Assembly: GCA_965207065.1 (NCBI GenBank)
Contig: OZ242260.1
Location: 1,344,001-1,408,000 of the forward strand
Reading direction: 5' to 3'
Length of the DNA: 64,000 nucleotides
Source of the DNA: a bacterium
Lineage (GTDB): Bacteria; UBA8248
A program made the position numbers and the translations under genes. The first letter of the stretch is position 1. Each line of letters opens with the position of its first letter. The notes beneath the pieces are model-generated. The model did not search any database, was not told the origin of the DNA, and was given only the letters and a program-made list of their open reading frames with translations. This document shows positions 7,539 through 11,531 of this stretch, in pieces.

Positions 7539-8402
7539 ATGCCTTACTCGAAAGTCGTCGAACTCACGGAAGGAAAGGTTTACGCCCTCCACAATACTTT
7601 TCCCCTGGACGGGCGGATCAGCGCATATCCCATCAGCGCACGCGGGCACAGCGTCTCGAACTGCTTTCTATTGAAAGATGACTCAGGTGCGCTCCTGCTC
7701 GATACGGGCTACGCCGCCCACGAGGCCGAAATTCTGGCGCAGCTGGAATCTCTCATCGACCCCGATTCGCCCCTGCATCTGCTTCCATTGCGAATCAACG
7801 AATTCATGTCTGTGGGCAACGCCATGGCGATCGCCAAGCGCTTCAACGTGGTGGAGTGCCTCGCCCCGGTGCCGGAAATCAACGAGTGGCTCGAGTTCGA
7901 AGCGCTCGAGCCCGGCGGCGGAAACAACGGCAATCCCATCCTTCCCACCACGATATTGAAACCGCTTCATCCCATCGAAATCGGCGATAGATACATCGAG
8001 GTGATGATCGCGCCGATTCGTCTCATCAGCACCCGCTGGATTTACGATGCGGCCACGCGCACGCTGTTCACCTCGGACATGTTCAGCCATCTTTGGACGG
8101 ATAGGGCGGAAGGTCCCTGGCTGCTGGATGAAGACGAGGTGACGACGACTTCTTTCGTTCGCTCGTTCCTGCTGAACACGCGCTACTGGTGGCTCGAGGG
8201 TGCGAGGACAAATTCCATCCGCAAAGGGGTCGCCGAAGTCTTCGAGCGCTACGATATCGAGACCATCGCTCCGGGCTACGGCGCCATCCTGCGCGGGCGT
8301 CATCTGGTAGAGCAGCAATTCGCCGTGCTGGATGAGGTTCTGGCGGGTTTCGACCGGAGCGTCGTCAAACCAGGGTACGTCGCATTGGGATTAGAGAGAT
8401 AG
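7539..8402 (+). CDS. Metallo-beta-lactamase-fold (FprA/ODP-like) protein with degenerate metal motif
   Basis: NCFLL..ALLLDTG, LFTSDMF and IAPGYG segments of the fold; the HxHxDH position is replaced by LRINEFMS. Confidence 0.7.
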   Translation: MPYSKVVELTEGKVYALHNTFPLDGRISAYPISARGHSVSNCFLLKDDSGALLLDTGYAAHEAEILAQLESLIDPDSPLHLLPLRINEFMSVGNAMAIAKRFNVVECLAPVPEINEWLEFEALEPGGGNNGNPILPTTILKPLHPIEIGDRYIEVMIAPIRLISTRWIYDAATRTLFTSDMFSHLWTDRAEGPWLLDEDEVTTTSFVRSFLLNTRYWWLEGARTNSIRKGVAEVFERYDIETIAPGYGAILRGRHLVEQQFAVLDEVLAGFDRSVVKPGYVALGLER

Positions 8403-8410
8403 GAGCGCTC

Positions 8411-9172
8411 ATGAGCTATCCTCTGCCCCGTGAAGTCTCGCCCGGCGTATTCTGGCTCGGCGACTGCCTCGTGCAGCACTCACAAGGCAAAATCTATCAC
8501 TCCTACAACGCGGCCTTCCTCGTCATCGGCTCAGAAGCCTCCATGCTCGTGGAGACGGGACATCCCAAGGATTTTCCCATTATCGAAGGGCAGATGAGAG
8601 ATATACTTGCCAAAGGCGGCGGGCCGCTCAAACACCTTTTCCTCACCCATCAGGAAACGCCCCACTCGGGCGGTCTGGGCCGCGTGCTCGACAGATACCC
8701 CGACCTCACCATCCACGGGGACATGTGCGACTACCATCTGGCGTTTCCCGAGCACGAGGGACGCTTCCAGGAGATGCGCGTGGGAGACGCCATCGACTTA
8801 GGAAATACGCAATTCATGGCCGTGGAGCCCGTGATCAGGGACTTGAGGAGTTCTCTCTGGGGATTCGAAACCAAAGGGCGCGTGCTGTTTCCCGGAGACG
8901 GCTTCGCCTACAGCCACTACCATACCGATGGTCACTGCGGAATGTTCGCCGAGGAGGCCACTTCTCTCGATCTGGTTGATGTGCTGGGCGTTTTCGCCGA
9001 ACGCGCCCTGTTCTGGACCACCTTCACCGACATGAACATCTACGCCGACAAACTCGAAGAACTGATGGCCGAGTTAAACGTCGAAATCGTAGCGCCGACG
9101 CACGGCCTCCCCATACGGGACATCGCGCGCACGATGCCGAAAGTCCGAGAAGGCCTAATCCAGGGCAATTAA
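8411..9172 (+). CDS. Metallo-beta-lactamase-fold (FprA/ODP-like) protein
   Basis: LVETG, THQETPHSGG, FPGDGF and APTHG motifs. Confidence 0.8.
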   Translation: MSYPLPREVSPGVFWLGDCLVQHSQGKIYHSYNAAFLVIGSEASMLVETGHPKDFPIIEGQMRDILAKGGGPLKHLFLTHQETPHSGGLGRVLDRYPDLTIHGDMCDYHLAFPEHEGRFQEMRVGDAIDLGNTQFMAVEPVIRDLRSSLWGFETKGRVLFPGDGFAYSHYHTDGHCGMFAEEATSLDLVDVLGVFAERALFWTTFTDMNIYADKLEELMAELNVEIVAPTHGLPIRDIARTMPKVREGLIQGN

Positions 9173-9209: not shown

Positions 9210-9608
9210 CTAGACGTCCTCCACCAGCTCCCACAGCGTGCCCATGGTGCTCTTGGGCTTGATGAAGGCGATGAGGTGCCCGCCGAAGCCGGGCCTGGAT
9301 TTCTCATCGATGAGTTCGAAGCCCTGCGCCTTCATGTCAGCCAGCACACCGTCGATGTTCTTCACGTCAAAGGCCACGTGGTGGAGGCCCTCGCCGCGCT
9401 CTTCGATGAACTTGGCGAGAGGGGTGTCCTGCCTGATGGGCGAGATGGGCTCGATGAGGTCGCCGCCCAGGTCCAGCATGGCCAGATCGGTCGCGCCGTC
9501 GGCAGAGGTCTCCCGCGCCAGCAGCTTCGCTCCCATGCCCTCGTATAGGGCGATGGCGGCGTCCATATCCTTCACCGCAACGCCGATGTGATGAAACTTG
9601 TTGAACAT
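9210..9608 (-). CDS. mce: VOC family protein, methylmalonyl-CoA epimerase-like
   Basis: HHIGVAV, GEGLHHVAF and IAFIKPKSTMGTLWELVE motifs. Confidence 0.78.
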   Translation of the reverse strand: MFNKFHHIGVAVKDMDAAIALYEGMGAKLLARETSADGATDLAMLDLGGDLIEPISPIRQDTPLAKFIEERGEGLHHVAFDVKNIDGVLADMKAQGFELIDEKSRPGFGGHLIAFIKPKSTMGTLWELVEDV

Positions 9609-9820
9609 ATCCGCATTCCTCCCGGCCTCGCGCGGCGGCGGAACGCGCTCCCCTCGCCGCGCCGGCCATTCATAGATTTGGTGACCCCCTGTTTAGCAGG
9701 CTTGGCGCGATTCCTCAATCAAACCCGCCTGGGAAACTATATTTCAGAGAGCGTTTGTCGTATCCTTCGTACATCAACACTATTAAACGAGCCGCATATT
9801 CATCCATGAGGAGAACATCC

Positions 9821-10384
9821 ATGCAAGAAGGCCCCATCGACGGACACAGCACCTCCACCGTGCTGGGCGAGCGCGTCATCGACAAGCCCGAACACCCGGC
9901 CGGAGGACTCTTTACCGACAACACCGTCCACACGGAGATGCACGAGGGCTCCCTGCAGCTCAAACGCGGCGCCGCCGGAAAATTCGAGATATTCTGCGAC
10001 GAGGGCGCGGGAATCGGCGGCACGGCCCAATACCCCACGCCCATGGCCTATCTCGCGATGGCGACGGGGTTCTGACTGCTCACCCAGGTGTCGCGGTACG
10101 CGCACATGATGAAAATGGAAATCAAAGGAGCGAGCGTCTCTGTCCGGTTCCGAAAACTTTTGGGCGGCTCGGTGCTCAAGGGCACCGTGTTCAACAAGTG
10201 GGAGAGCGTGGACACGCACCTGAAAGTCGAATCGGACGAGCCCGCGGACAGGCTCGCCCACCTCATCAAGAACGCCAAGAACGGCTGTTTCGCCGAGGCC
10301 CTCATTTCAGAGCCCGTGCCGCTCAACTCCACCATCGAGGTGAACGGCGAGCCCTTCAAGATAGAGGGCGTGACGGCGGATTAA
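9821..10384 (+). CDS. OsmC-related protein, probable selenoprotein (in-frame TGA 10073-10075, codon 85)
   Basis: RBS GAGGAGA precedes ATG 9821. The frame reads ...DEGAGIGGTAQYPTPMAYLAMATGF-TGA-LLTQVSRYA...KNGCFAE, so the TGA is at the first OsmC Cys and the frame stays open to TAA 10384. Confidence 0.88.
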
Positions 10385-10406
10385 CATCAATACATGGAGT
10401 TTATGG

Positions 10407-10859
10407 ATGGAATATTTCAACGCATCGGACGACATATCCTTCGGCTCGCAGCCCGAGCCCGCGGACCTCGAAGCCCTCGCCGCAAGAGGGGTCAAGACCA
10501 TCATCAACACGCGCTTTCCCGAGGAAGACCAGGGCGATTTGCCTCCCGAGCGCGCCAGGGCCGAGGCCGAGGCGCTGGGCATGCGCTACGTGAACATCCC
10601 CGTCTCGCCGGTCGAGTTCACTCCTGCCTCGCTGGCCGAGGTGAGCCGCGCGCTCGCTGAAGCCAAGGCCCGCGGCCCCGCCTTCGTCCACTGAAAGGCC
10701 ACGGGGCGGGCCGGGATTTGCTCGCTGAACCATCTGGCGGATGAGAACGACTGGACGGCGCGGGAGATGGAGGGGGCCGCCGACGCCACCGGCTTCGACT
10801 GGCGCGACGCGCCGCTCGCGCCCAAGTACCGCGAGTTCTTCTCCCGGAGGCCCGGCTAG
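10407..10859 (+). CDS. DUF442/beta-lactamase-hydrolase-like (PTP-fold sulfurtransferase/phosphatase) protein, probable selenoprotein (TGA 10692-10694, codon 96)
   Basis: SQPEPADLEALAARGVKTIINTR and GMRYVNIPV, then PAFVH-TGA-KATGRAG, matching the PVxVHCxxxxR loop. The frame continues about 54 codons to TAG 10859. Confidence 0.85.
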
Positions 10860-11392
10860 GCGCACGCCGGATGCGCATCGCGCGCAAATGCGGGCTGTAG
10901 CGGGCAGATGCGCGGGAATCGAAAATCTTTTTTTGTCGCTATATTTGAGTGAGCCACACTCAGATTTAATAAGTAATCTTTTTGATTACAACCGGTTACG
11001 AGGCAGGCGCTTTTCATCAATTTATCGAAAAACCCCGTGAATTTATCTGTATTTACAGAAAATATGATTATTTGTATTGTTGGCTGATCTTCGCTCGCCT
11101 CCCTCCAAAGGCCGTGTTCCCGCGCGATGTCCAGACGAGCACCCACGGGCGCGGGCGAGGGATGGGCGTTTGCGCTTCCCGGAGCAGTTGAGGATCGTCC
11201 CGCCTCCTGCCGATCCGCCTGATTCATTTTCCCCCTCCCCGTATCGATGCAGAGACTGCCTTTCGCGCGGGAAATTCTCGCCCACGCGCGCGAAAACCCG
11301 GCCACGGCAAATGCGGGCAAATGCGCGCGCGTTTTTTGTCGGTAGGTTTCGGGCCCGCGCCCGATTGAAAAGGAAGGGAAGCGGTTTTCGTT

Positions 11393-11420
11393 CGTCATTC
11401 CAGCGAAAGCCGGAATCCAT
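11393..11420. repeat. Short palindromic repeat (GTCATTCCAGCGAAAGCCGGAATCCA type, REP/RPE-like)
   Basis: Imperfect palindrome of the widespread GTCATTCCCGCGNANGCGGGAATCCA class, in an intergenic region. Confidence 0.6.
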
Positions 11421-11531
11421 TTGCTTTGCCTTTGTTTTTATTTTCTGACTGGTTCCCGAAATGACGGCTGTGGTTAATTCCGAGTGATGAGGAGTTTTTC
11501 ATCGGGCTTTCCTCTCGGGAAGCCCGACGCC

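Follow-up and report, generated by a model that had tools for sequence, protein, structure and literature searches.

We analyzed a stretch of 64,000 nucleotides (hereafter the window) from a bacterium of the GTDB lineage UBA8248 (NCBI GenBank assembly GCA_965207065.1, contig OZ242260.1, positions 1,344,001 to 1,408,000 of the forward strand). On its plus strand, at positions 10407 to 10859 (counted from the first letter of the window and including the TAG stop codon), lies a gene that, judging from the sequence, is very probably a genuine selenocysteine (Sec, or U)-encoding member of the DUF442/BLH family (PF04273). The frame opens with an ATG at 10407-10409, reaches an in-frame TGA at 10692-10694 directly after the residues ...A-R-G-P-A-F-V-H, and continues past it without a further stop until a TAG at 10857-10859. 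When the TGA was translated as U, an assignment based on its pairing with Cys in homologs and on its recurrence across genomes, we obtained a protein of 150 residues with U at position 96, within the motif H95-U96-K-A-T-G-R101. The codons of this predicted active-site loop (H95-U96-K97-A98-T99-G100-R101, of the form H-U-x4-R) occupy 10689-10709 on the plus strand. All 20 of 20 ortholog loci share the M-E/D-x-F start of the protein, and a putative ribosome-binding-site-like GGAG (10396-10399, plus strand) lies 7 nt 5′ of the ATG.

The open reading frame (ORF) list made with translation table 11 contained only a 95-codon ORF (10407-10694) and a 154-codon antisense ORF at this place. Long antisense ORFs are common in G+C-rich DNA, and we rejected the antisense frame (10401-10865, 154 aa) as a real gene: it is the plus-strand frame that agrees with the Pfam match, with the homologs, and with the distribution of variation over codon positions. 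A promoter and terminator scan of 9500-11100 returned no terminator-like site and one promoter-like site (11052-11080), which lies downstream and is not relevant to the gene.

The read-through protein matched Pfam PF04273 (BLH_phosphatase, formerly DUF442) with 45.5 bits (cutoff, 26.1) over residues 7 to 102, a match that spans the TGA. The nearest NCBIfam model was the sulfur-transferase part of Blh (NF040641, E value = 5e-15, residues 6 to 135 on profile positions 3 to 130 of 423), followed by TIGR01244. From a 63-sequence alignment, AlphaFold2 gave a confident model with a mean predicted local distance difference test (pLDDT) score of 95.3 and a predicted template modeling (pTM) score of 0.90, in which residue 96 closes strand 92-95 shortly before helix 100-114 begins. 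When this model was compared with the PDB by Foldseek, the top matches were two DUF442 structures, 3gxh (TMq 0.72) and 2f46/NMA1982 (TMq 0.77), each with a probability of 1.00, and the next were Tk-PTP, TpbA, PFA-DSP, and PTPMT1. A sequence search of the PDB gave only marginal matches of the TpbA type (E value = 0.15 to 0.5), and the TpbA alignment needs a gap in the loop, with U-x4-R one residue shorter than the C-x5-R of the phosphatases. The protein lacks the classical signature C-x5-R(S/T) of protein tyrosine phosphatases (PTPs) and dual-specificity phosphatases (DSPs) and has the family loop H-C-x4-R-A/S-G, as H95-U96-KATG-R101-A-G; H95, C96, and R101 were nearly invariant among the 63 family members. 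The read-through protein is thus a PTP-fold domain with a short H-C-x4-R loop. The initial annotation had already proposed both the gene anatomy (ATG 10407, TGA 10692, TAG 10859, 150 aa) and a DUF442/Blh-like PTP fold with U at the catalytic Cys of an x4-R loop; we recovered the first in every particular, and the second was borne out by PF04273, by the homologs, and by the model.

Next, we looked into which residue occupies position 96 in homologs of the protein. A phmmer search of 1.84 billion cluster representatives gave 1,698 matches at an E value of ≤0.001, and position 96 was mapped in 148 of the best 150 of these (P0052 and P0059, frame-shifted or fused fragments, were excluded). The 148 representatives divided into 135 with Cys, 4 with Ser, and 9 that did not cover the position, 3 of which stop exactly at residue 95. 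Among the matches listed, the TGA was thus aligned with Cys in 135 of 139 covering homologs, in which the motif of the Cys forms reads P-V-F-V-H-C-x4-R-A-G. One of the homologs, P0037, is a full-length Cys form of 162 aa with 50% identity over 99% of the query; around the Cys it reads ..FVHCKAIGRAGVCS.. (..L-V-F-V-H-C-K-A-I-G-R-A-G-V-C-S..).

The in-frame TGA recurred across genomes. We searched 41 genomes in six frames, namely, that of the window and 40 relatives. The gene was present in the window's genome and in each of the 24 others that belong to its family (24 of 24); outside that family a match, weak and without a stop, appeared in 1 of 16 genomes. All 46 of 46 strong matches covering the site, from 25 genomes, carried the in-frame TGA (45 with one and 1 with two). 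Most genomes held two copies, an ortholog with 66 to 93% identity and a paralog with 36 to 52%, and the pattern H-TGA-x3-G-R-A-G-I/V-C-S was present in 41 of 41 extracted sequences (20 ortholog loci plus 21 further relatives). Furthermore, a species-wide scan of the GTDB collection with one genome per species and an 8-sequence alignment as the query returned 79 loci, with TGA at the site in 50, Cys in 28, and Asp in 1. The records of the TGA loci are labelled Nitrospinota, Nitrospinaceae, Candidatus Tectomicrobia, or simply "bacterium," and one of them (L125) is labelled Planctomycetota. Since the TGA is present in dozens of independent assemblies, it is not a sequencing error. The Asp at the catalytic position belongs to L114, a relative in the Cys clade (..L-I-H-D-S-N-A-N-R..). 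The sequence with two in-frame TGAs is the paralog of genome G010 (locus L107), whose loop also shows a change from G to R (..K-G-V-R-R-A-G..); because it combines these two features, it is possibly a decaying copy.

We then compared the coding constraint on the two sides of the TGA in the 20 orthologs. The ratio of nonsynonymous to synonymous polymorphism (pN/pS) was 0.217 for codons 1 to 95 and 0.225 for codons 97 to 148, and therefore the part past the TGA is under the same protein-level selection as the part before it. Variable columns at the first, second, and third codon positions numbered 26, 27, and 76 (of 95 each) upstream of the TGA and 13, 10, and 35 (of 52 each) downstream, a coding-like pattern, and none of the 20 orthologs had an indel or a second stop up to codon 148. 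A word-indexed search returned 65 public matches, of which 54 were 95-residue proteins (63% of the query covered); public gene calls are thus cut at the TGA. The sole source-given name among the 65 was "sulfur transferase domain-containing protein" (P0019), and P0077 is a separate 53-aa gene call that covers residues 98 to 148 only. These truncated calls, P0077, and the standing of TGA as the commonest stop of the genome are what one would expect if the TGA were a true stop, leaving a 95-residue truncated protein or a pseudogene with a downstream frame open by chance or separately translated. However, a chain of 95 residues stops just short of the catalytic Cys, by one residue, and is missing the P-loop arginine as well as three helices of the fold. 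In addition, the 52 downstream codons are constrained as described above, the arrangement is kept between paralogs of about 44% identity and across Nitrospinota- and Tectomicrobia-labelled loci, the first in-frame ATG/GTG/TTG past the TGA is in a CTG/ATG region far downstream, and the ORF at 10741-11040 is in another frame. We consider a true stop extremely improbable.

Past the TGA we identified a putative bacterial selenocysteine insertion sequence (SECIS) hairpin on the plus strand at 10705-10726. Its 7-bp stem pairs GGCGGGC (5′ arm, 10705-10711) with GCUCGCU (3′ arm, 10720-10726) around an 8-nt loop, CGGGAUUU (10712-10719), which has G at loop position 2; the stem starts 10 nt and the loop 17 nt past the UGA, and the hairpin alone folds at -9.7 kcal/mol. 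The bacterial SECIS (bSECIS) criteria given in the Fig. 2 legend of PMC13188914 are a loop of 3 to 9 nt, a stem of 4 to 16 bp, a G in the first two loop positions, a UGA-to-loop distance of 16 to 37 nt, and a minimum free energy of ≤-7.5, and the hairpin lies within all of them (its values were compared with the criteria and are not bSECISearch output).

Synonymous sites in and around the hairpin are constrained as well. The synonymous rate was lowered in codons 97 to 112 (pS of 0.18 versus 0.36 upstream). In a 41-sequence codon alignment, considering columns with an invariant amino acid and a degenerate codon, a single codon was used in 6 of the 7 such columns within G100-S106 (GGG, GCC, GGG, ATT, TGC, and TCG) and in 1 of 21 outside (Fisher test, P value = 1.2e-4, which is overstated because the 41 sequences are kin); the seventh column within G100-S106 showed only CGG or CGA. 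The hairpin's synonymous sites were frozen across paralogs of only about 44% identity. The frozen stretch folds as GGCGRGC/GCUCGCU, in which the R site pairs with U as G·U or A-U. We further compared the 48-mers of 91 locus entries, in which some genomes appear twice; 37 of these 48-mers were distinct. All seven stem pairs were standard in 37 of 37 sequences, with three variants of the loop; the variable stem sites kept their pairing (G·U to A-U at one pair and G-C to G·U in one sequence), and the flanks varied, with 22 variants of the 10-nt spacer before the stem and 25 of the 13-nt 3′ flank.

Besides the kinship of the sequences, several points count against reading the TGA as Sec with this hairpin as its signal. 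The 60 nt past the UGA folded at -17.2 kcal/mol with a z score of -0.26, and 70 of 200 shuffled sequences were at least as stable; because the sequence is G+C rich, folding energy is uninformative here, and we relied on synonymous-site conservation instead. No compensatory change on both sides of a stem pair occurred in the 37 distinct sequences; what supports the structure is the invariance of synonymous sites together with one-sided changes, and covariation contributes nothing. An Rfam scan of 9500-11500 gave no match at an E value of ≤1. The I-C-S-L residues that follow the loop are encoded by the hairpin's 3′ arm, and their conservation is thus no evidence of selection on the protein. A similar ambiguity affects Cys105, which lies 9 residues past U96 and was present only in the three Sec-clade rows of the 63 aligned members, the others having F, L, or M: its TGC codon (10719-10721, plus strand) is part of the 3′ arm, and its conservation need not stem from the protein alone. 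Lastly, Sec insertion at UGA-96 is a prediction from sequence. The initial annotation had described a hairpin here as weak and GU rich. We confirmed the hairpin, which is better drawn as a 7-bp stem, and did not confirm that it is weak, given its agreement with the bSECIS criteria and its frozen sites, though its energy is no better than that of shuffled sequences.

To be read as Sec, a UGA needs dedicated machinery, and the genome, a single contig of 4.48 Mb, held all four components. SelA scored 517 bits, the wing (winged-helix) domain of SelB scored 77.9 bits within a 652-codon frame, and SelD scored 334.5 bits (G000:C1:543537-544499, minus strand); the tRNA-Sec scored 75.9 bits with Rfam and was called by ARAGORN as tRNA-SeC with the anticodon TCA. 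The SelD match contains one in-frame TGA, and SelD is thus probably a selenoprotein itself in this genome. TGA ends 806 of the 1,694 open frames of ≥400 codons and is the commonest stop of the genome, which argues against a genome-wide reassignment of the codon. The identity of the inserted residue does not follow from an in-frame UGA by itself, and Trp, Cys, or Gly might be inserted by near-cognate or suppressor decoding or by a reassigned code. This is highly unlikely, in view of the use of TGA as a stop just given, the pairing of the site with Cys and not with Trp or Gly in the homologs listed, the SECIS-like hairpin frozen at the expected distance, the full machinery with a TGA in its own SelD, and a neighboring OsmC gene that belongs to a curated (seleno)protein family. 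The initial annotation had read the TGA as Sec and had named what should be looked for, namely, Cys/TGA pairing in homologs, a frame conserved on both sides of the TGA, reads with TGC or TGT in its place, and the genes selA, selB, selC, and selD. The pairing held (135 of 139, with P0037 as a Cys form), as did the frame (pN/pS of 0.217 and 0.225, with no indel in 20 of 20), the TGA was the same in dozens of assemblies, and the four genes were present; together with the hairpin, these results support Sec as the probable reading of the codon.

The gene directly upstream, at 9806-10384 on the plus strand, also appears to encode a selenoprotein. It matched NCBIfam NF041052, "OsmC-related (seleno)protein," with 163.8 bits (cutoff, 95) and has an in-frame TGA at 10073-10075 in the motif ..A-T-G-F-U-L-L-T..; its start is uncertain (ATG at 9806 or 9821, in a frame open from the TTG at 9755). 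Its stop at 10384 lies 23 nt ahead of the DUF442 ATG, making the two adjacent Sec genes, and an OsmC-type gene stood directly upstream in 20 of the 21 loci of the window's ortholog lineage. Farther upstream on the plus strand are two tandem genes of the metallo-β-lactamase (MBL) fold (7539-8402 and 8411-9172), which weakly resemble ODP/flavodiiron diiron domains (PF19583; NCBIfam flavorubredoxin, E value = 1e-10) and are not persulfide dioxygenases; the pair was kept upstream of the OsmC gene in 18 related loci. A gene resembling methylmalonyl-CoA epimerase lies on the opposite strand.

Short, low-depth (2 to 4) pieces of the locus were present among RNA-library contigs of four runs. One 259-nt piece (X15, 10604-10862) bridges the TGA and shows no change there, and two others (X15, 10308-10472, and X18, 10355-10563) bridge the OsmC stop and the DUF442 ATG. 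Such libraries may contain DNA; these contigs hint at transcription only weakly and do not serve as evidence of it, and stretches that lack cover carry no meaning. In addition, six DNA runs labelled as sponge metagenomes, from six studies, each contained 73% of the sampled words of window positions 9700-10900, and two runs of "organism A" contained every one of these words and may come from the source sample; this suggests that the organism is sponge associated.

The second copy in the window's genome has a different neighborhood. This paralog (G000:C1:4140380-4140842, minus strand, equal to L058:4977-5441, minus strand) has 154 residues and 44% identity to the window copy, with which it shares the H-U-x4-R loop and the hairpin nucleotides. 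It lies 23 nt downstream of a Transglut_core2/SirB1-like gene and adjoins ilvD and an acetolactate-synthase-like gene. The order Transglut_core2 (PF13369, SirB1-like), DUF442(Sec), and ilvD was found in 28 of the 49 Sec-clade loci (L077, L080-L083, and L085-L107), which we take to be the older copies. Besides this paralog, they include the loci labelled Tectomicrobia and basally branching members of the window's lineage, and their labels are Nitrospinota, Tectomicrobia, and "bacterium." The window copy is among the remaining 21 of the 49, of which 20 are OsmC linked, and none of the 30 loci outside the Sec clade had a Transglut_core2 neighbor.

We built a maximum-likelihood tree of 102 sequences by a quick procedure, with a midpoint root that serves only for display. 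In it, 40 Sec forms and the Cys form P0037 fell into one clade (Shimodaira-Hasegawa-like approximate likelihood ratio test, 99). The Planctomycetota-labelled L125 was placed outside that clade, among the Cys forms and on a long branch. Its gene (approximately L125:1607-2240, plus strand) has a TGA at 2063 in the catalytic position (..V-L-M-H-U-G-G-G-S-R-I-G..), encodes a lipoprotein-type N terminus, and is followed by a different, 8-bp hairpin, GAUCGGCG-GUG-CGCUGAUC, whose GUG loop lies 17 nt past the UGA. SelA was found in the genomes of L125, L080, L086, and L092. L125 may represent a second, independent change from Cys to Sec. The family's history is most simply read, in a tentative order, as an ancient change from Cys to Sec and then a duplication, a single return to Cys in P0037, and the second Sec form seen in L125.

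As for what the protein does, we propose the following. SelB with Sec-tRNA-Sec would recognize the mRNA hairpin and insert Sec at UGA-96, so that an H-U-K-A-T-G-R active-site loop would sit at the N terminus of helix 100-114. The Cys forms suggest by analogy that the nucleophile would be the selenolate of U96, which would take up sulfane sulfur (or selenium) in an Se-S(H) adduct and hand it on, and Cys105 might resolve a selenenyl-sulfide. The analogy comes from two characterized DUF442 domains. That of Xylella Blh has thiosulfate:cyanide and thiosulfate:glutathione (GSH) sulfurtransferase activity (PMC5823870), and that of the Cupriavidus sulfide:quinone oxidoreductase (SQR) acts as a rhodanese through Cys94, with C94S inactivating it (PMC9163753); as described there, these domains move sulfane sulfur among thiosulfate, glutathione persulfide (GSSH), polysulfide, GSH, sulfite, and cyanide via Cys (PMC5823870, PMC9163753). 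Sulfane-sulfur transfer through an Se-S adduct on U96 accordingly has, in our estimation, about an even chance of being the function. Some results tell against it: the TIGR01244 score of 46.9 bits was under the curated cutoff of 85.85, the Blh model NF040641 gave 55.3 bits (cutoff, 625) and its dioxygenase domain was not matched, and the window copy has no SQR or persulfide-dioxygenase gene adjacent to it and no bigR context. Moreover, the selenoprotein-type SQR (NF049943) reached only 28.8 bits in the genome (cutoff, 525), and there is thus no support for a Sec-based sulfide oxidation pathway.

A selenoprotein with other chemistry might occupy the same fold. It could be a phosphatase or arsenate reductase, as the fold and loop of PTP-type phosphatases and the PDB neighbors that follow the DUF442 structures would suggest, or a thiol/selenol oxidoreductase that acts in oxidative-stress defense with the OsmC selenoprotein and uses Cys105 to resolve a selenenyl-sulfide. 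The latter is consistent with the clade-specific Cys105, with the position of the window copy 23 nt past the OsmC-type gene and near two diiron MBL-fold genes, and with the recurrence of the OsmC neighbor in the lineage. However, the loop is one residue short of the phosphatase C-x5-R, sulfur transfer is the only biochemistry known for DUF442 domains from the two reports cited above (PMC5823870, PMC9163753), and the adjacency to OsmC holds in one lineage only, whereas the other 28 Sec-clade loci adjoin Transglut_core2 and ilvD. We regard these other chemistries as rather unlikely. A further idea, which we consider improbable, is that the U-x4-R protein is the catalytic half of an unrecognized two-gene module with the Transglut_core2 protein, a PTP-fold selenoenzyme that would cycle through a U96-C105 selenenyl-sulfide and either deliver selenium or sulfane sulfur to a target protein or restore protein thiols that have been persulfidated or oxidized; the window copy would then be a duplicate recruited to an OsmC selenoprotein cluster for peroxide defense. 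If true, this would put the PTP fold to a new catalytic use.

Returning to the gene as a probable selenoprotein gene with sulfur transfer as its candidate function, we asked whether the family had been described as such. None of the open-access full texts searched pairs "selenoprotein" with DUF442, or "selenocysteine" with TIGR01244, PF04273, BLH_phosphatase, or DUF442. Table 1 of a 2026 review (PMC13188914) lists 119 prokaryotic selenoprotein families and subfamilies, none of which is PF04273, TIGR01244, or of a phosphatase fold, and we found no occurrence of "phosphatase," "PTP," "Blh," "PF04273," or "TIGR01244" in it. A PF04273/DUF442 selenoprotein was also not found in passages of the deep-Sep paper, the Global Ocean Sampling (GOS) survey, and a 2022 review. 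BSepDB was built by homology to 111 known families, and the ten organisms that it ranks as richest in selenoproteins include UBA8248 genomes with the label Nitrospinota (PMC13326102). Within the open-access literature (the family supplement of BSepDB and the NCBI Sec annotations lie outside that scope), DUF442/PF04273 is thus most likely an undescribed selenoprotein family, and the initial guess to that effect agrees with this literature, the 119-family inventory included.

The find would add a PTP-fold/DUF442 family to the bacterial selenoprotein families, and no selenoprotein before it would have Sec in a phosphatase-type loop of the form C-x4-R. Because new bacterial selenoprotein families are still regularly reported, it is incremental rather than surprising in kind. 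It also corrects a systematic annotation error, the ending of most public gene calls of this clade (54 of 65) at residue 95. The Sec and Cys forms (P0037 and many Cys homologs) lend themselves to a paired comparison of what selenium contributes to the chemistry of a P-loop nucleophile. Furthermore, the presence of two copies per genome and of relatives labelled Nitrospinota and Tectomicrobia points to a selenium-dependent sulfur or redox function kept in these bacteria.

Compared with known systems, the protein comes closest in structure to NMA1982 (2f46) and the Shewanella DUF442 protein (3gxh), both named as putative phosphatases, although it shares only 18 to 20% identity with them, and they are Cys proteins whose function is not established in their entry titles. 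With the classical Cys PTPs and DSPs (TpbA, Tk-PTP, and PFA-DSP) it shares the overall fold and the H-C...R arrangement at the strand-to-helix turn, but it has U-x4-R where they have C-x5-R, and the sequence match is marginal (E value = 0.15 to 0.5). The DUF442 domains of Blh (Xylella/Agrobacterium) and of the Cupriavidus pinatubonensis SQR resemble it in their PF04273 membership, their P-V-x-V-H-C-x4-R-A-G loop, a nucleophile at about residue 94 to 96, a length of about 140 to 150 residues, and the DUF442 fold. Unlike them, it has Sec for the catalytic Cys and carries Cys105, stands alone without a dioxygenase or SQR fusion, scores under the TIGR01244 and NF040641 cutoffs, and has no sqr, pdo, or bigR context. 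Finally, it resembles the rhodanese-like selenoproteins (forms 1 to 5 in Table 1 of PMC13188914), which are of the sulfurtransferase type, have Sec for the catalytic Cys, and were likewise predicted from Cys/Sec pairing and a bacterial SECIS, but the two belong to unrelated folds and families, the rhodanese fold of PF00581 in their case and the PTP fold of PF04273 in this one.

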